Origin: Ostreococcus lucimarinus
Lineage: Eukaryota
DNA: 64,000 bases
Direction: 5' to 3' (one strand)
Assembly (NCBI GenBank): GCA_000092065.1
Contig: CP000586.1
Shown here: piece by piece, positions 9,829-19,690 of the stretch
How positions within the stretch are numbered: the first letter of the stretch is position 1
Layout of the letters: each line of letters opens with the position of its first letter
Translations under genes and position numbers: made by a program
The notes under the pieces: generated by a model
Seen by the model: only the letters and a program-made list of their open reading frames with translations
Told to the model about the DNA's origin: nothing
The model's database searches: none

Positions 9829-11031
9829 CTACATCGTGAAATTTGACACAGGAATGATGATTTCGTTTCGCCTGAGGAACGGGTTCGTGAATGGATCGTT
9901 GTACTGCGCCAACGCGGCGGCGCCGCTCGCCTCCAAACCGTCGTTCTCGATCAATTTTCGCAACTGCTTCTCCACGTCACGAGCCGCCTCCTCGGTCGCG
10001 ACGCCAGAAAATTTCTTAGCGACAAAAATACCGCCACTTTCTTCCCGCAACACTACGTTTTCATTCGTGCTCGCTGGGAGCGCGTCCACGGAGTCGCCGC
10101 TCACGACAAATTGCATCGTGGCGTTCTTCGTAAACACAGGCGTCGTCATCTCCATTTTCGTCCCACTCGCGTTGGCTTGGCCGAAGATGTAACCCGCCAA
10201 AGAATTAAAAGCTTGGCCCGCGACTTGACCGTTCATTTTTGCGCTGCTCGACGACACTTCCTTGACGTTCAGACCCGGACCCGTGGCGGCGACCAAGTAC
10301 GGCTCGTATCGTCGCACTTCGTAATCGCGCCTCTTCTTCAGCACCACGTACCCTGGGGTGTCCAAATCCGGCGTCTGCGCGAAATCAAAAATCTGTTTCA
10401 GCACCTCCACCACGCCCTCCGCACTGAGATGCCTCTGATTCTCAATCGAATCCCACGTGTCCACGTGGCGCGTCACCTTCTTAGTCTCCTCGTCGATCCC
10501 CATGATGGACGTTCCCGTAAAAGTCAGCGTCGGTCTCCAAGCGAAAGGAAACGTCGGCAATCCCATCACCATCGTCCATCGCGTCGTGATCTCCCAAGGT
10601 CCGCTCTGATATATTTCATGCATCGCGTACGTCGGCGAGAACACCCGTCGCAGCATCTGAATGTTAAACGCGTACCCGTCGAACGAGTCGTACTTCGTCA
10701 GCGGGTCCTCGAACGACACGTCTTTCGCGTACAGCGACGGATCGATCCCCTCGTCGTCGAACAGGTGCGTCAGATCCTCCGCCAGCGCCTTTCGCATCCG
10801 CGCGGACTCTTCTTCATCCATTCCCTTCGCCGTCGATGACGTCGTCGTCGTCGCGCGCGTCGCCGTCGTCGTCCGGCGTCGCGCGTCGCGCGTCGTCGGT
10901 CGCGTCGTCCGTCGCGTCATCGCGCGCGTCGGTCGCGTCGTCATCGCGCGCATCGTCGTCGTCCGTCGTCCGTCGTCTGTCGTCGTCCGTCGCCATCCGC
11001 CATCCGCCGTCGATCCACGATTTTGCCTCAT
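9829..11031 (-). CDS. SOUL heme-binding protein with N-terminal DUF2358/NTF2-like domain (plant HBP5-like), likely plastid-targeted
   Basis: ATG at 11031; R/T-rich presequence. C-terminal SOUL domain (TPGYVVLKKRRDYEVRRYEPYLVAATG...MTTPVFTKN...GGIFVAKKFSGVATEEAARDVEKQLRKLIENDGL...YNDPFTNPFLRRNEIIIPV). Confidence 0.8.
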   Translation of the reverse strand: MRQNRGSTADGGWRRTTTDDGRRTTTMRAMTTRPTRAMTRRTTRPTTRDARRRTTTATRATTTTSSTAKGMDEEESARMRKALAEDLTHLFDDEGIDPSLYAKDVSFEDPLTKYDSFDGYAFNIQMLRRVFSPTYAMHEIYQSGPWEITTRWTMVMGLPTFPFAWRPTLTFTGTSIMGIDEETKKVTRHVDTWDSIENQRHLSAEGVVEVLKQIFDFAQTPDLDTPGYVVLKKRRDYEVRRYEPYLVAATGPGLNVKEVSSSSAKMNGQVAGQAFNSLAGYIFGQANASGTKMEMTTPVFTKNATMQFVVSGDSVDALPASTNENVVLREESGGIFVAKKFSGVATEEAARDVEKQLRKLIENDGLEASGAAALAQYNDPFTNPFLRRNEIIIPVSNFTM

Positions 11032-11143
11032 TTTCGTCGATTTGGCGAGTCATGACTCGTCCCGAGTACCGTCGTCCGCCATCCGTCGCGCGCGGTGCCG
11101 AGTTCGTCGCGATCCGGGCACGCGCGCACATCGCGACGCCGCG

Positions 11144-11162
11144 ATGGTGCGGTCGCGCGCGC

Positions 11163-11193
<31 letters not shown>

Positions 11194-14100
11194 ACGCGAC
11201 GACGTCGACGCGCGCGCGCGGGTCGCGGACGGACGACGAGGGACGGACGCGCGCGAACGCGCGGACGACGGGCGCGGGTCACGGTTTCCGAGAGACGCGC
11301 GCGCGGCGACGCGCGCGGACGCGACGCGCGGGACGCGCGAGACGGCGCGGACGTCGACGCGAGAGGACGATGGAGACGACGCGCGAGTAGACGATGGGGA
11401 CGACGGCGACGCGGGACGCGCGCGGAGGGACGCGCGACGGCGAACGGTGATGCGGGCGAAGACGCGCGCGCGATTCGACGACGACGAGAGAGGCGAGGAG
11501 ACGTTGGCGGATTTCGCGTTCGGACGGGACGTCGCGACGCGAGAATGCGTTCCGGATTTTGTGAAGCGTCCGGTAGACGCGTGGGGACGCGCGCGCGGGA
11601 GAGGTGGACTCGACGCGGCGATGTATAGATTGTCGAACGCGATGGACGACGGCCGATTCGATCCGTCGAGTTTGCGAATTGAAGACGGCGATTTTTCAAA
11701 GATTAACGGTGAGTTTGCGAAGCAGTTTTGGAGAATTAAGATGCAGTTGATGGATTGCGTCGTGATGGTAAAGCACGGATCGTTCTATAACATGTTTGAT
11801 GTGGACGCCGACGCCGGGAAGGCGGTTGGACTTCAGCAGACGGGGACGAATTCAGGATTCATGCGCAAGGTTGGCTGTCGGGCGGAGTCGTTCGATACGT
11901 GGGCGGCTCGTTTACTCGCTCGTGGGTACACGGTTGCCCGGGTGGAACAGATGAGCGAAGCGGCGAGAGAGACCTCGGTGATGAAGCGGGAGTGTTGCGA
12001 AATATTGACTCCCTCGCTCGATCGCGGGCTGACGAACAACGAGCGCGCGAATTTCTTCATCACCATCGCGGGAAGCTCCGTGAAATCTTTGCACTCGTGC
12101 GACTATTTGGGTGTGTGCGCGGTTGACGCAGATTCTGGCACCGCCGCGTTGGGTGTCGTGACGCCTCAAGATCTGCACACCGTCTTGGTGCAATACGAGC
12201 CACGAGAGGTCGTGATTAGTGAACAGCTTTCTGACGACGCGAGAAAGATGCTCGTGTCGTACGTGCGTGAAGGCGGTGACGCGACAGACTGCGTTTTACG
12301 CGTTATAGAACGTGGCAAAGTGAAAAACCCGTCGATCGAGCGCTCGAACATTCTGAATTGGTTCAAATATCACACCGACGAGCCCGTTTCAAATATTCTT
12401 CAGGAAGCCACTGAGGCAGAGTTACGAGCCGTCGGCTTTGCGATGCGTCATCTCGCTTGGTGTGGTGTGTTGCAAGACGTCTTTTCTCGAACAAAGTTTA
12501 TGTCCATAGTGTCTGTTGAGCCAAGACGAACGAATGCTGAAGAAAACCAGTCGGCTTTTGCGCTCTCGCGCGAGCTCACGCACGTCATGCGACTCGATGG
12601 CGACGCGATCAAGAACTTGCACTTGCTCTATGGCGACACTGGGAAGACTACGGGTTCGCTCTACGAGTTTCTTAATCACACGTTTACCGCTCCCGGTCGT
12701 CGACGGCTGCGACAATGGCTTCTCCGTCCGCTACAAGATGTGCGCGCCATCGACGCTCGCCTGGACGTCGTGCGAGAGTTCTCCAACAATCACGTCTTGC
12801 TACAAACTTTCCGTGACAGACTCAAGCACTTCAAGTGGGACCACGAGCGACTTTTCGCAAAGTCGTGTCGATTGGCTATCAAGTGTACGAAAGTGTACAA
12901 TATCGTTCGATTCAATCAAACGTCGCCGTTGACGCAAGAAGACGAGATGGGTCTCAGAGAACTCGCGCCGAAAGGCGCGACGAAGCTCGAAGAGATTCTT
13001 ATCGACGCTGTGAATATGATTAGCTTTTGGGAAATGCACAAAAGCGCACTTGTTACATTTGTGGACTTGGTTCGCGCGTTGATCGAGATACGCGACGTGG
13101 TTTCCACCTTGAGTGAAATTGCAGAGCGTAACGTCTCCGTTGCGAGCTTACATCGCGACGTCGAAGACGCGATATCGTTTCTTCGTGAGTTGCGTTCGTG
13201 TCTAGAAGATAGACGGAAAGAAAACACGAAAAACAAAGAAAGATACATCGTTCCAAGCGCACTTGTGTTTCGTGACTACGGTGAGTTTGCGGCGGCGGCG
13301 GAGCGAGAGAGAGCGCAAGATCCAATAGTTCGAAAACACGCGCAGCGCCAACGGCGAGAACTGCTGAGAAACATTTACATTCCACTCAGCGATGATGACG
13401 AGCGAGACGATGAAGAGCAAGACGCGGCCGACCGCGCTGACTTAGCGGCGGCTAACGCATTTACTGAAGTGATGCATGCCTTTTACGAAGAAATCCCTCG
13501 TTTTGAACGAGTGGTGAGCGCCATGGCAGATTTAGACGTTTTACAAAGTTTTGCCACGTCTTGTGCGTCTTCAAGAGGTGCTGTTGGTTTCACTCGACCA
13601 CGTTTTACTACTGACACATCCTCGAGTACTTTAGAGCTCGTCTGCAGTTGGCACCCTCTACTCAAGCCGAGTATGGTGGACGACGCCAAGAGAATCACGC
13701 ATAACAGTGGCATCGTCGATAATGATGTATCGATGAAGACGCCCTTCGTGCTTCTTACTGGTCCTAATATGTCGGGAAAATCTTCCATACTACGCCAAGT
13801 TGCTATTATTGTCATCATGGCGCAAATTGGTTGCTACGTTCCCGCGGCATCTTGCGAAATCAGCGTGGCCGACGCTGTGATGACCCGACTTGGCGGCGAC
13901 GACAATTTCGCCAACGGCGTAAGCACATTTTTGAACGAAATGAAAAGTACGGCGAAAATCATGAACGACGTAACTTCGTCTACACTGGTCATACTTGATG
14001 AACTGGGCAGAGGTACGTCTACCTTGGATGGCTACTCGATCGCATTCGCGACGAGCCTTGAATTATGCTCTTGTGCTCAAGCTCCTCGCGTGTTGTTCGC

Positions 14101-14554
14101 CACGCACTACCACGAGTTGGACAAAGATTTGGCGAGACAAGAGATTGCGCGAGGTAAGTTTGTCACAAAGCACATAGACGTATCCAGTACTCGCTCAGGC
14201 GCGCTTAAGATGACGTATAAGCTCAAGAATGGTCCAGCACCTCTCGGATCGTGCGCGTTGAATGTCGCACGCCTCGCTGGCTTTCCTCCTGGAATTCTCA
14301 CCCGCGCTTCGCACGTCTCGCAAACCGTCACCTTCAAAGGGCGAGTTAAGGATAGCGGCTTCTCAAGATCCTCGTATGTACCGCCAAAGGCGTTACTAAG
14401 TAATGAAGAACATCTCATGCTTTCAGCGCTCCTGGGCGATCCCGCTCTGACCGGTGACGCCGATAGGCTCGGCGACGGCGTTGAGTGGTGCCGACGCTTC
14501 CATGCCCTGTGGCGGAAGTGCAACGATTTATCGAACCGCGCGAACGAGCCGTGA
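11144..14554 (+). CDS. DNA mismatch repair protein MutS homologue, MSH6/MSH7-like
   Basis: Track ORF 10661..14554 overlaps the SOUL gene on the other strand. First in-frame ATG outside the overlap is 11144 (MVRSRARDDDD...). Domain I FWRIKMQLMDCVVMVKHGSFYNMFDVDADAG...LLARGYTVARVEQ...ILTPSL; Walker A TGPNMSGKSS; STFLNEM; LVILDELGRGTST; HYHEL. Confidence 0.85.
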
Positions 14555-14702: not shown

Positions 14703-17700
14703 TTAAATTTGAGGCAAAGCGATGTCGGCGATGTCATCACTGGAGACAAAGCGGATGTTGGCCCAATCACCGGCAGCAGCGGTAGACTTCGTGCGCTCAA
14801 GCGCGGCGATACCCGCATCACCGTCTTCGAGCACGGACGGAGTGGATGCGTTGACATCGAGGCGCTGGCGAGAAATCATAATGATATCACCGATTTGCCA
14901 GTCGCCGGGAGATGGAGCTGGCGTGGAGACGTCTTCTACCCAATAACCGAGACCTAAGACGTCAAGACTGGTGGAATCTTGCACGATCTGCTTAGGATTG
15001 ATTGGTTTTGGTTTCTCCGGTGAGGATTCCTCGGTGTAGACGGGTTTGTAAACAATCATCGTCGTCGCCGTGGCATCGGACTCTGCGTTGGACACCGGCG
15101 TCTCAAGCCGTTTTGGCGCCGAAAGGCAGCAGGAGAGAAAACCCGTCGGGTTTCTGTACGGGGTTTTCTGCACGGGAGCGTGCGACGCCATCGGCATCAC
15201 AGCTTGCGTCGTCGCCGGCGGCATCGGCATCACTGCCGCCGCAACTGGTGAAGGCTTGTCGGCGGGCACGGGTTCCGAAGGTTTTTGTGTGTGAGAGGCG
15301 ACGTAAGTTTCTAGAACGGTTTCATCCGGTTTGTCCGCGAGCATCACTTTGCCCTTCTTGCCGTTTCGCAAGTTTAAAACTTCGTAAGTGCCGGCCCAGT
15401 TCGACCCGTCGCACTTCCCACAGTTTAGCGCACGTACGGCGTCTTTATCGAAACGGAAAATCGAGCCATCGGACGGATAACCGTGTCGCCGAATGTCGAG
15501 AACATTGATGGCGGTGGACGTGCCGAGAATATTGGCGTGAATACCGCCGCCAGAGCGCGCCGTCGAGTTCGCGAGCTTGTGCAAGTCCGTTGATTCCCAT
15601 CGCACACGCACGGCGGACACATCATCCATGATCGACTTGAACGCCCGTCCCCAGCGAACGTTTTCTGTACTGAGCTCTATTTTATGCCACTTTCCATCCG
15701 AACGCAGCGCTTTCGCCGTGAACGGAAGAGCTTCGAACGACGCATCCGTGTGAACGCCGTAAATTCGTGTCCCCACGCTCGCGGCTTCAATCTGAAATTC
15801 AATCTCCAGTTCTTTCCACCACGGACCGACAAGACCGCATTGACCATACCGAATTAAATGCCCGGGTAAGTTCCAACCAGTTTCCGTCTGGCACACGTAG
15901 TTGTCCATCGACAGCGTGAATGTGTACGGCGGAGGTTGGTTGTCATGCGAATACGCCAACAACTCGATGCGATCGCCCGGCTTCCAATCCCCTTCGTGGG
16001 CGTAATCGCAAGGATTCGCGCAACCGACGCCGATGCCCGACTCGTGCTGAAACACTATGACGCTCCCACGTCGTTCGCCCGCGCTCGTGTCGTTGGGGAT
16101 CGCGAATGAGGCGCCATCGCCGCCTTTTATGACGCCCGTCTTCCAGCCTTCGTAACTCGCATCGCCCCAATCTTCAATGCCCGTGATGGCAGAGAGCTGC
16201 GAGCTCTTGAAGCGAAACCACTTCCCTTTAGGCTCTGGCTCTGTTTTGCCGGGCATGACACCGCCGGGGTAATCGATGCTCACGACATCAAGGTGTGGAT
16301 CGACGAGCTTTCTTCGTTGTCGAGGGAACACAAACGCATCGGGCTTCAGCTTTACGACTTTCTTCTCACCCGACGCCGTTTTGTACGTCCGCTCTTTCGG
16401 GGGCGGTGGTTTTTTGTGAGGATTGTACACGTAAAACTCGTCACGCTCCTGCGCGTTTGGCCCACTGATGGATTTGTCGCCCCATTTTGATGCGTCATCA
16501 ACGCACTCTTCGCCGCGGTTGCCTTCGTCCTTGGTTGGCCACTTGTTAGACCCCCAACCAACCCCGAGCAAGTCAGGATCACCCTCGAGTAAGCCGACGT
16601 GAACACCGCCGCCGTACTTTTCACTGTAGCACGGCACCCCGGGGGCGCCTTTGTCAGGCACACGAACATTAAACTTAAAGTGAGTGATAGGTTCGTACTT
16701 TCTGTCGCGATGCAGCATGAGAGCTCCGAAATGTTGCTTGTTTTTATCATCCGTGCACAGTCCACTTCGAAAAGAAGGTTGACCTTCACCTTGACTGTTA
16801 ATGCCCTCGTTGTCGCGGCAGTTGTATGTCTGACAACAACCACCCGCTTGCAGGAGCGTTCGATTATCGATGAAGACGCCGATTGGAGTGTACGGACGCC
16901 CGTTGATCAACTCGGGGTCTGATCCGGTGGGATGCTTCAGCTTGATCTCGAACATGAGCCACATCGTACGCTTGCCTCCTCGGTAATTTTGCTCTTTCGG
17001 GTAAATTCCACTTTGGCCAGGGAATATTCGCTCGATTGGCTCGTCGTTGACGCCGCCCGTCATGAAGTGGGCGTCGTCGTCTTTGGAGTAGTCTTCAACA
17101 AACTTGATCGAATCGAATTTGCTCGGATCCATGAATCGCACACCCTTCGGCAAGCCACGGTACGCGATGAGTTCGATGGGCTCGCCGACGAGCCAGTCGC
17201 CCGGCTGCGCGCTCTCGACGGGGTGATAACAGCCCACGCCCATGCCGTTTGGACCGCCAAAAACGACGATCGCCGAACGCTTTTCTTGTCGATACACACA
17301 GAAAGTCGCGCCTTTCCCCGATTTGACGCTAAAATTTTCTGTTTTGTACGCCTTCAGATCCTTATTCGCCCACTCGTGTCCGATGACGCGCGTGAGCTCA
17401 TCCATGTCGAAGCGAAAGAATCTCCCATCCGCCGGCTTGGATTTGTCCGGATACTCCAACGACGTGACGTGTACGTACTTCCGATCGGGAACTTCATCAG
17501 GAAACACGACAACATCACCCTCATCAACTTTTGAAAGCCCTTGGTCGACCGTCGATCCGTTCGGTTTCACGTCTGGAATCGTCCCGAGCGCCGGCGCCCT
17601 CCCGTCCCCCGCGAGTCCAAAGCTCAACGTTTTCGACAACTGCCTGAGCATCGACGGTTGCTTTTTAAACACGTGCACGTTATGTTCCACCACCACCACC

Positions 17701-18077
17701 GTCGTTTTCAGCGCCGCAGCCTTCATTCGCGCCGCCACCGTGCCGTCCAGCAGCGCTCCCGGTTTCAACCGCTTCGCCGCATCCACGAAGCGTTCGACGA
17801 GCGCGTACAGCCCCGTGTTGCTCGAGCACGTCGACGCGAAGTCCTCCAGCGTCACCCGTCGATCGCACGGTTCGGTGTGATTGATCGCGATCCACGCTTC
17901 GATCGCCGCTTTCTCGTACGTCCGTCCCGTCTTCGCGACGACGACGGGATTCTTCATCACTCGCAGCGTGAGCGCGCACACGTACGCGTCCGGCGCCGCG
18001 GCGTGGAACGCGGGATCGGCGTACATCGCGGCGTCGACGTCGATGTCGCGAGGGAACGGGTTCGCGCGTCGGCCCAT
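14703..18077 (-). CDS. U-box E3 ubiquitin ligase-like protein (1124 aa) with three internal ~100-aa repeats of unknown family
   Basis: ATG at 18077. N-terminal canonical U-box: PDAYVCALTLRVMKNPVVVAKTGRTYEKAAIEAWIAINHTEPCDRRVTLEDF. Three repeats each start G-x-[FW]FRF[DK] (DGRFFRFDMDEL..., KGKWFRFKSSQL..., DGSIFRFDKDAV...) and share W-x-D/N...Y-E/K-G/A-W/Y-K-T and GxGVGC motifs. Lower GC than neighbours. Confidence 0.75.
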   Translation of the reverse strand: MGRRANPFPRDIDVDAAMYADPAFHAAAPDAYVCALTLRVMKNPVVVAKTGRTYEKAAIEAWIAINHTEPCDRRVTLEDFASTCSSNTGLYALVERFVDAAKRLKPGALLDGTVAARMKAAALKTTVVVVEHNVHVFKKQPSMLRQLSKTLSFGLAGDGRAPALGTIPDVKPNGSTVDQGLSKVDEGDVVVFPDEVPDRKYVHVTSLEYPDKSKPADGRFFRFDMDELTRVIGHEWANKDLKAYKTENFSVKSGKGATFCVYRQEKRSAIVVFGGPNGMGVGCYHPVESAQPGDWLVGEPIELIAYRGLPKGVRFMDPSKFDSIKFVEDYSKDDDAHFMTGGVNDEPIERIFPGQSGIYPKEQNYRGGKRTMWLMFEIKLKHPTGSDPELINGRPYTPIGVFIDNRTLLQAGGCCQTYNCRDNEGINSQGEGQPSFRSGLCTDDKNKQHFGALMLHRDRKYEPITHFKFNVRVPDKGAPGVPCYSEKYGGGVHVGLLEGDPDLLGVGWGSNKWPTKDEGNRGEECVDDASKWGDKSISGPNAQERDEFYVYNPHKKPPPPKERTYKTASGEKKVVKLKPDAFVFPRQRRKLVDPHLDVVSIDYPGGVMPGKTEPEPKGKWFRFKSSQLSAITGIEDWGDASYEGWKTGVIKGGDGASFAIPNDTSAGERRGSVIVFQHESGIGVGCANPCDYAHEGDWKPGDRIELLAYSHDNQPPPYTFTLSMDNYVCQTETGWNLPGHLIRYGQCGLVGPWWKELEIEFQIEAASVGTRIYGVHTDASFEALPFTAKALRSDGKWHKIELSTENVRWGRAFKSIMDDVSAVRVRWESTDLHKLANSTARSGGGIHANILGTSTAINVLDIRRHGYPSDGSIFRFDKDAVRALNCGKCDGSNWAGTYEVLNLRNGKKGKVMLADKPDETVLETYVASHTQKPSEPVPADKPSPVAAAVMPMPPATTQAVMPMASHAPVQKTPYRNPTGFLSCCLSAPKRLETPVSNAESDATATTMIVYKPVYTEESSPEKPKPINPKQIVQDSTSLDVLGLGYWVEDVSTPAPSPGDWQIGDIIMISRQRLDVNASTPSVLEDGDAGIAALERTKSTAAAGDWANIRFVSSDDIADIALPQI
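17919..17960. repeat. 42-bp segment of U-box coding sequence, copy 1 of a dispersed direct duplication (copy 2 at 18688..18729)
   Basis: cgtccgtcccgtcttcgcgacgacgacgggattcttcatcac identical at both loci. Confidence 0.85.
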
Positions 18078-18090
18078 GGTCGAGCGCGTC

Positions 18091-18122
18091 GCGGCGTCGC
18101 GGCGTCGCGGCGTCGCGGCGTC
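18091..18122. repeat. (GCGGCGTC)4 tandem repeat in 5' leader of U-box gene
   Basis: gcggcgtcgcggcgtcgcggcgtcgcggcgtc read directly. Confidence 0.85.
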
Positions 18123-18527
18123 GCGCCACGCTCGCGATTCTCCGGCTCGCCGCGCCGCGCTCCGGCGACTCGGCGTTTCGGCGATCCGCGTCGCGCGCGC
18201 GGCGACGGACCGCGCCCCGCCCGCCCGTCGAGGCGCGCGAACGCCATGGAATACGCGATGGGTTTAAAAAAAGTACAGTACGCGATATCAAATGATACCG
18301 CGGTAAGGTTGTTGGACTTTGTGGAACATCCCAACCCCAACGAACGAGGATGTTGGCGCGTTGACGCGGCGCGCGCGCGGCATCGCTCGACGCCGAGCGA
18401 CGCGCGACGCTCGCGCGACTCTCTCGCGCGGCGAAACGCGTCGATCTAAAAAGTTTGCGCGGCGCGAGACCGCGCGCGCGCGAACGCGGCGGGACCGCGC
18501 GACGGACGCGCGCGAAAACGTCAATCG

Positions 18528-18590
18528 CGTCGCGCATCCCGGAGACGGTTCGCGGCGTCGCGCATCCCGGAGACGGTTCGCGGCGTCGCG
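18528..18590. repeat. 28-bp tandem duplication (x2.2) in U-box/LON-N divergent intergenic region
   Basis: cgtcgcgcatcccggagacggttcgcgg repeated head-to-tail. Confidence 0.85.
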
Positions 18591-18687: not shown

Positions 18688-18729
18688 CGTCCGTCCCGTC
18701 TTCGCGACGACGACGGGATTCTTCATCAC
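18688..18729. repeat. copy 2 of the 42-bp U-box coding fragment, 35 bp upstream of the LON-N gene ATG
   Basis: Same 42-mer as 17919..17960; flanks differ. Confidence 0.85.
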
Positions 18730-18763: not shown

Positions 18764-19690
18764 ATGCGCGCGTCGTCGCGCGCGTCGGCGACGCGCGTCG
18801 CGCGCGTCGCGCGCGTCGACGCGAGGCGGCCGCGGGCTCGAGCGCGCGCGCGCGCGCGCGACGGTGCCGGCGACGACGACGACGCATCCGCGCTGGACAT
18901 GGACGCGCTGCGAGCGCGCGTCCGCGCGCTGGCGAAGCGCGAAGAAGCGCTGGAAACGCTGCGCATCGTCGTGCTGGACGCGAGCGTGCCGAAACAAGTG
19001 CTGCCGCTGGAGTTCGACGGCGCGAACGTCGAGAGGACGCTCAACGCGGGGACGGCGCTCGGGCGAGACGCGCGCGTGGGCGATCGATTCGGGATGCTCG
19101 GGCAAGCGCCGAGCAACGGACAGATACTGCCGAACGGAGTGGAGGTGACGGTGACGCGAGCGATGGTTCGGCCGAACGGGGGGGAGAGTTTGATCGAACT
19201 CACGGCGTCGCGGCGGTTTAAAATCGTGGGGGCTCCGTTCGAGGACGAGGCGAACGGATCGGCGCCGAGCGCGAGGGTGTGCTGGATTCCCGATACCGAA
19301 GGCGCGGGCGAGCAAACCGTCGCGGGCGGCGTGGAGGAGCCGGGCGCGGTGGATCCCGCCGAGTGCGACGCCGAGTGCGCGGCGCTCGCCGCGGAGCTTC
19401 CCGCGCTCGTCGACGAATGGCGGGCGCTGGTGATTTCGAGAAAGCGCGAGCGTCAGCCCGATCAGTTGAAGTTGATCTTATCGCAAATCGGCGACATCCC
19501 TGGGTCGAACCGACCGGCCGAGCTCTCGCTTTGGGTCGCCGCGCTCATCAACCCGATTCCCGCCCTCGGCGTGGCGTACGAGATTCGTCCGGCGATCCTG
19601 TGCGCGCCGACGACGGGTCACATGGTTCGCATCGCGTCCCAAGGCATCAAACTTTCCATCAACAGTCTGCGCGACGGGCCTCAAATTTGA
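18764..19690 (+). CDS. LON protease N-terminal (substrate-binding) domain-like protein, probable plastid presequence
   Basis: ATG at 18764, R/A-rich N-terminus. Weak similarity to plant LON N-domain proteins: [46 protein letters not shown] ... [27 protein letters not shown]. Confidence 0.4.

Follow-up and report, generated by a model that had tools for sequence, protein, structure and literature searches.

Plant U-box (PUB) E3 ubiquitin ligases, such as AtPUB14 (1t1h), enzymes of the OsPUB/SPL11 type and PUB12/13 (7xed, 8hpb), contain the U-boxes closest to that of the protein described here, and they are built according to the same logic, with the U-box followed by a repeated recognition region. 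For this region plant PUBs use ARM, WD40, TPR or kinase domains. Galactose-binding-like domains of the discoidin, F5/8 type C or CBM32 kind are also found in the ubiquitin-ligase machinery, namely as the discoidin domain of muskelin and in APC10/DOC. In this study, we analyzed a stretch of 64,000 nucleotides (nt) of contig CP000586.1 of Ostreococcus lucimarinus (assembly GCA_000092065.1), referred to below as the window, and within it a gene whose product, A4RYB6, begins with a U-box. In place of the repeats known from plant PUBs, this protein carries FRF-discoidin-like units of no described family. FRF is our provisional name for a module of about 110 amino acids (aa), taken from its opening G-x-[FW]-F-R-F.

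The gene and its U-box

The gene is occupied by one uninterrupted open reading frame (ORF) on the minus strand, and the translation equals the sequence quoted in the original prediction. Exact look-up identified it as XP_001418357.1 (ABO96650.1, UniProt A4RYB6), a 'predicted protein' of O. lucimarinus CCE9901. Searches by accession and of the literature on U-boxes, Ostreococcus and discoidin found no description of A4RYB6 or of the FRF domain. The parts of the gene are listed below, with the methods that delineated the FRF modules (HMM, hidden Markov model; AF2, AlphaFold2 model).

14703..18077, minus strand: whole single-exon ORF including the stop codon, 1124 aa
17787..17996, minus strand: U-box, aa 28-97, Pfam PF04564, 30.1 bits
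17154..17486, minus strand: FRF module A, aa 198-308, DGRFFRFD ... GVGCYHP ... GDWLVGEPIELIAY (HMM, hhalign, AF2)
16305..17153, minus strand: X1, aa 309-591, about 280 aa that follow FRF-A in place of a jelly roll
15942..16304, minus strand: FRF module B, aa 592-712, KGKWFRFK ... GVGCANP ... GDWKPGDRIELLAY (Smith-Waterman, hhalign, HMM)
15513..15941, minus strand: X2, aa 713-855, jelly roll like discoidin / F5-8 type C, with TGWNLPG, GQCGLVGPWWKELEIEF, HTDA, RVRWESTDLHK and RSGGGIHA
15324..15512, minus strand: first part of FRF module C, aa 856-918, DGSIFRFDKDAVRAL ... YEVLNLRNGKKGKVMLAD (hhalign; weak HMM matches in homologues)
14970..15323, minus strand: insertion of about 118 aa splitting FRF-C, aa 919-1036, rich in Pro and Ala, fast-evolving
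14853..14969, minus strand: second part of FRF module C, aa 1037-1075, LDVLGLGYW ... PGDWQIGDIIMISR (hhalign)
14706..14852, minus strand: conserved C-terminal tail, aa 1076-1124, APSVLED ... AAGDWANIRF ... LPQI

The U-box, likewise recognized in the original prediction, covers positions 1-67 of the 73 of the Pfam model and scores above the cut-off of 21.4 bits; judged by its sequence, A4RYB6 is a member of the U-box family. When the protein was compared with the sequences in the PDB, only U-boxes were returned (E 1e-6 to 1e-4), those of plant PUB type and that of Legionella LubX; the plant PUB U-boxes 7c96, 1t1h and 7xed align to it. Outside the U-box, A4RYB6 gave no Pfam match at E<=1 and no NCBIfam match.

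Several further features of this locus may be recorded here. A stretch of the U-box coding sequence, VMKNPVVVAKTGRT (17919-17960, minus strand), recurs as an exact copy of 42 nt (46 nt at 98%) at 18688-18729 on the minus strand, in intergenic DNA about 770 nt upstream and about 35 nt before the ATG of a divergent gene encoding a LON-domain protein. Zero matches of this kind would be expected by chance, and the copy may be what is left of a partial duplication, or a tract of gene conversion. Directly upstream of the ATG at 18077 lies a GC-rich short repeat with CGCGACGCCG units (18078-18140), the copy number of which varies between this genome and a near-identical metagenomic variant of A4RYB6, P0001, that differs from it by a few substitutions. 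In that variant, which differs at the repeat, the ORF call is 20 aa longer (1144 aa). An artefact of the gene model, or a pseudogene, is ruled out by intact homologous ORFs at 64-66% identity, with the domains far better kept than the insertion.

Three copies of the FRF module

Beyond the U-box, three related modules had been claimed, and the claim proved correct: by sequence comparison the three FRF copies are real, and the third one is split. The relationship between copies A and B is clear already from the two sequences, which gave a Smith-Waterman score of 185 against 30.8+/-5.0 for 500 shuffles (z=30.7), and from profile-profile alignment with hhalign (probability 99.8, E 6e-28). A family HMM built from 25 modules of other proteins together with B, with A left out, found copy A at 77.7 bits (E 4e-26); it matched copy B at E 9e-37, a value to be read with the fact that B was among its training sequences. 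The self-comparison of A4RYB6 by blastp gave the identity diagonal only.

A profile of 34 modules reads G-[KR]-x-F-x-F, a helix, (K-x-G-x-G-A), an R-T-G hairpin, G-x-G-C-W-N-P and D-W-x-x-G-D-x-[IV]-x-L. All three copies match this profile, copy C by profile-profile comparison. Not seen in the original prediction, the second half of copy C follows its first half only after a gap of about 118 aa: the FRFD opening is found at aa 873 and the GLGYW...PGDWQIGDIIMI block at aa 1037-1075, in the order of the module, and the K-x-G-x-G-A strand is absent. In a proper alignment, the similarity of the repeats holds for A and B; that of copy C is weak by single sequence and significant by profile. Single-sequence Smith-Waterman comparison gave z=4.2 for A and C and nothing significant for B and C, and the family HMM scored each of the two short stretches of C at about -1 bit. 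In homologues, the first part of C produced weak matches to the FRF HMM (E 5e-4 to 1e-2). On the other hand, when a profile of the C region from 12 homologues was aligned to the 34-sequence FRF profile, the first part alone matched with probability 98.3 and E 2.4e-14. With the insertion excised, the match extended over FRF positions 14-116 with probability 99.2 and E 2.2e-19; this excision was chosen after seeing the data, and the latter value is therefore supportive, not independent. The second half of C alone matched the second halves of A and B at E about 1e-5 (hhalign), and in the homologue P0064 the two halves are parted by a much shorter stretch.

Copy A is 77-83% identical to its counterparts in the homologues P0002 and P0003. 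For the three copies together, identity to the Ostreococcus-type homologues P0002-P0005 is 62-83%, compared to 34-39% for the insertion, and all three FRF copies are under constraint.

An AF2 model of FRF-A alone, made with a 34-sequence alignment, reached a predicted local distance difference test score (pLDDT) of 83 and a predicted template modelling score (pTM) of 0.76. It represents a small beta-barrel in which the FRF strand is followed by a helical segment. The FRF profile found nothing among PDB sequences (best E 0.17), the 34 modules gave no consistent match in Pfam (2025 copy), and a search of viral folds in BFVD returned nothing at E<=0.001 (best TM-score 0.43). None of the known Pfam families against which the module was tested, with MATH, SPRY and CAP-Gly among those named beforehand as possible identities of the repeats, was matched. 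The FRF module is thus undescribed within Pfam (2025 copy), NCBIfam and the sequences and folds of the PDB.

FRF and a discoidin-like jelly roll form one unit

The original prediction held that the part of the protein following the U-box matches no domain that could be named. This is correct for FRF and incorrect for aa 713-855: here the suggested check for a beta-sandwich or lectin-like fold revealed a jelly roll of the discoidin type in the predicted structure. The predicted fold of X2 is an eight-stranded jelly roll superimposable on solved discoidin/CBM32 domains. At the level of sequence, comparison with Pfam PF00754 gave no match at E<=1 in A4RYB6 or in any of 25 units (that of the window and 24 homologues). 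A distant member of the family, P0124, passes the F5_F8_type_C threshold (29.7 bits versus a cut-off of 28.2) and bridges the family and the Pfam domain.

When FRF-B and the jelly roll were modelled together (AF2, aa 578-870, 25-sequence alignment), the mean pLDDT was 88.8 and the pTM 0.86, with pLDDT >90 over most of the FRF module. These values indicate that the FRF module and the jelly roll are predicted to pack in a fixed arrangement. The evolutionary unit is FRF plus jelly roll (about 240 aa), not the module of about 100 aa alone. The stretch running from FRF-B to the C terminus, used as a profile against 1.84 billion representative proteins, matched 97 clusters at E<=1e-3 and 60 at E<=1e-10, and most matches span profile positions about 32-271, that is, FRF and the next 145 aa or so, a block ending with TDLHK..GLSTxRSGGGxHAE. 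Across 25 units, which are 28-79% identical to that of the window, 17 columns are invariant, mostly polar residues or glycine. The polar loops CWNP, TGWNL, FGxCGLVGxWW, TD and TDLHK..RSGGGxHA are nearly invariant. A pocket shared between FRF and the jelly roll is conjecture.

The segment X1 occupies the place of a jelly roll after FRF-A. Comparison of X1 with X2 gave z=1.0 by Smith-Waterman and a probability of 4.6% by hhalign. In a low-stringency hhalign alignment five motifs are collinear (GQSGIYP/GQCGLVG, MWLMFEIKL/WWKELEIEF, IGVFID/IYGVHTD, FNVRVPD/VRVRWESTD and GGGVH/GGGIH), but with P=0.023 and a probability of 2%. Judging from these sequences, it is likely but unproven that X1 is a jelly-roll copy that has diverged strongly and expanded. 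Its identity among the long homologues is 63%, well above that of the insertion, which argues that X1 is under constraint.

The insertion that splits FRF-C is 34-39% identical to that of P0002-P0005, versus 62-86% for the domains. It includes TTMIVYK and a di-cysteine motif, FLSCCL/FSCCF, at aa ~980-985 (window ~15123-15140), whose SCC columns hardly vary among Ostreococcus-type homologues; in its place, those of Micromonas type carry a basic GRKFIRFG. The di-cysteine motif is a candidate site of S-palmitoylation or membrane contact. The C-terminal tail is conserved, with 65-69% identity in P0002-P0005 and several invariant columns.

Distribution and partner domains

The FRF-jelly roll unit occurs beyond Mamiellophyceae, in cryptophytes, dinoflagellates, a raphidophyte and marine metagenomes, giving a host range of Chlorophyta, Cryptophyta, Dinoflagellata and Raphidophyceae. 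The named sources are the dinoflagellates Polarella glacialis and Gymnodinium smaydae, the raphidophyte Heterosigma akashiwo and the cryptophyte Baffinella frigidus; the remaining ones are marine metagenomes and transcriptomes, and no homologue bears a functional name.

The domains that accompany the unit vary. It is combined with a U-box outside Mamiellophyceae in P0068, P0071, P0076, P0078 and P0116, and in P0069 with a RING-like N terminus (a weak zf-RING_5 match of 18 bits, below the Pfam cut-off of 27.9). Two units precede a PARP catalytic domain in P0065, and laminin-G, the unit and a PARP catalytic domain are joined in P0072; other partners are laminin-G (P0073) and TPR (P0111). Three FRF modules alone are found with a class-3 lipase domain (Lipase_3) in P0134, and short tandem arrays of FRF only in P0122, P0127, P0142 and P0151.

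Other homologues of Mamiellophyceae type (P0006-P0010 and P0061-P0064) consist of the U-box, FRF-B, the jelly roll and the split FRF-C, and lack FRF-A and X1. This first unit (FRF-A with X1, about 400 aa), and with it X1, is carried only by the window protein, P0002 and P0003. Word-indexed protein searches have no bearing on this distribution: with X1 alone (aa 312-578) they gave no match and missed even the near-identical P0001, and with the FRF alignment they gave only 3 matches. P0004 and P0005, which are short forms, fall within the group of long ones, with 87% identity in the shared region between P0005 and P0003 compared to 82% for P0003 and P0002, and the P0005 contig (2464 nt) is too short to hide unit 1. 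Such nesting implies that unit 1 was gained in this clade and then lost at least once. The FRF-jelly roll unit is an ancient mobile cassette in marine protists, and unit 1 is a lineage-specific addition.

Possible function of the protein

The architecture of A4RYB6 suggests, with a probability that we put at roughly 0.6, a U-box E3 ligase whose FRF-discoidin units recognize a substrate or ligand. The view of the module as a substrate-recognition repeat, put forward in the original prediction, is thus a reasonable one to infer. It would act as a cytosolic E3 ubiquitin ligase, with the U-box recruiting the ubiquitin-conjugating enzyme (E2) and the C-terminal 930 aa or so arranged as FRF-A with X1, FRF-B with the discoidin-like jelly roll, and FRF-C split by a presumably disordered insertion. 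The FRF-discoidin units would form the recognition end and might bind a conserved ligand or degron, for instance a glycan, lipid head group, modified residue or peptide motif, and the bound target would be presented to the E2~ubiquitin held by the U-box. The presence of three modules could make recognition multivalent or broaden it. In other lineages, it might be RING, PARP or lipase activities that this same sensing unit directs to such targets. A module that stays constant while its effectors vary usually marks a recognition domain, and this favors such a role; the analogy with galactose-binding-like domains, nearly all of which bind, points in the same direction.

Several observations weigh against this proposal. 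Two consensus E2-contact positions are altered in the U-box. The CPI of plant U-boxes is replaced by CAL in A4RYB6 (CPL in most homologues), and, again unlike in plant PUBs, the proline of LxPN is replaced by serine (S-S-N) in A4RYB6 and in P0002-P0009; x-P-N is retained by the U-boxes of P0010, P0063, P0068 and P0071, from other lineages. The catalytic competence of the U-box is assumed. Moreover, the X2 family HMM finds nothing in X1, comparison of folds with the PDB left FRF without an informative structural relative, and the invariant polar motifs RSGGGxHAE and CWNP would fit a catalytic or cofactor site too.

The last point leads to the alternative that survives best, although we consider it rather unlikely, namely that the FRF-discoidin unit is a sensor of a small molecule or modification that regulates the effector allosterically, or is an enzyme itself, rather than passively receiving substrates. 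Its polar and glycine-rich motifs (CWNP, TD, TDLHK, RSGGGxHAE) are conserved to an extreme degree in four protist lineages, with 17 invariant columns; this is more typical of one fixed small-ligand pocket or catalytic site than of protein-protein recognition, and the unit adjoins PARP and lipase catalytic domains. Nevertheless, the galactose-binding-like fold is overwhelmingly a binding fold, and no catalytic family was matched by sequence or structure. Furthermore, FRF-A has His in place of the invariant Asn of CWNP (CYHP) and X1 is devoid of most of the motifs, which indicates that at least one unit of this protein could not share such a site.

Less probable still is that the repeated region serves as a scaffold for structure, oligomerization or membrane association, with partner proteins choosing the substrates. 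The conserved FSCCF of the insertion could be a palmitoylation site, the discoidin domains of factors V and VIII bind membranes, and the loss of unit 1 in the close relatives P0004 and P0005 shows that it is dispensable. However, it is rare for a scaffold to retain 17 invariant positions, most of them polar or glycine, in different supergroups, and the unit accompanies many unrelated effectors. That the third copy is a chance motif match, the protein having two FRF modules only, is very improbable: the weak single-sequence tests, the negative HMM scores and the post hoc removal of the insertion would suit this view, but the unedited C-region profile matches FRF, the second half matches independently and in the right order, the gap is much shorter in P0064, and both halves are conserved.

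A wider role of the unit may be tentatively envisaged, at odds well short of even: it could be an unrecognized marine-protist sensor of one conserved ligand, coupled to ubiquitylation through U-box or RING, to ADP-ribosylation through PARP, or to lipolysis. Such a ligand could be, for example, a glycan, a nucleotide-derived modification (such as ADP-ribose), or a molecule of viral or stress origin. If so, the unit would be a protist counterpart of the WWE-type link between ubiquitin and PARP, possibly acting in signalling during stress or against viruses. Since Ostreococcus tauri can be manipulated genetically, the recognition hypothesis can be tested.

Composition and surroundings of the gene

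The gene had been described as markedly richer in AT than its flanks. This is true only in relation to the GC-rich 5' intergenic stretch (GC 0.70); the GC content of the gene, 0.567, equals that of its 3' neighbor, and other long genes of the window range from 0.545 to 0.59. An unusual composition or foreign origin is ruled out, as this value and the GC at third codon positions (0.659) resemble those of neighboring long genes. Throughout the window, conserved coding sequence with GC 0.49-0.58 alternates sharply with intergenic or low-complexity DNA, rich in Arg, Ala and Asp codons, with GC 0.70-0.78, and the latter stretches give rise to numerous long spurious ORFs on the two strands. At 18527-18582, within GC-rich intergenic DNA upstream of the gene, a 28-nt sequence is perfectly duplicated in tandem (GCGTCGCGCATCCCGGAGACGGTTCGCG x2). 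The two neighboring genes are as follows.

10661..14554, plus strand: MutS homologue, 1297 aa, with MutS domains I, III and V
18764..19690, plus strand: LON substrate-binding-domain protein

The MutS homologue has a long low-complexity N-terminal extension, and its MutS domain I starts at aa 352. In a eukaryote, these neighbors have no functional implication.

Comparison with known systems

U-box ligases are defined by what they recognize, and in A4RYB6 the part that would do so is a domain family present in no database. This family, whose motifs are almost invariant in green algae, dinoflagellates, cryptophytes and raphidophytes alike, is common to ubiquitin-ligase and PARP enzymes. A family name and a ligand would annotate about 100 protein clusters from ecologically dominant picoplankton, and could point to a new input for signalling by ubiquitin and ADP-ribose. 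What is described here is a solid new domain family in an ordinary kind of enzyme, a U-box E3, and not a new kind of system.

Among the closest known systems, six-stranded beta-barrels of the EF-Tu domain 2, RimM-N, Gar1, eL33 or FAD-binding-domain type may be named for the FRF module. In comparison with known discoidin/CBM32 domains, X2 shares 5-14% sequence identity with its matches, lacks the terminal disulfide pair and has invariant motifs of its own, FGxCGLVGxWW, TDLHK and RSGGGxHA; also unlike in those domains, an FRF barrel precedes it in most of the matched proteins long enough to show one. The WWE domain offers a functional analogy only: like the FRF-discoidin unit, it is a small domain common to ubiquitin ligases and PARPs.

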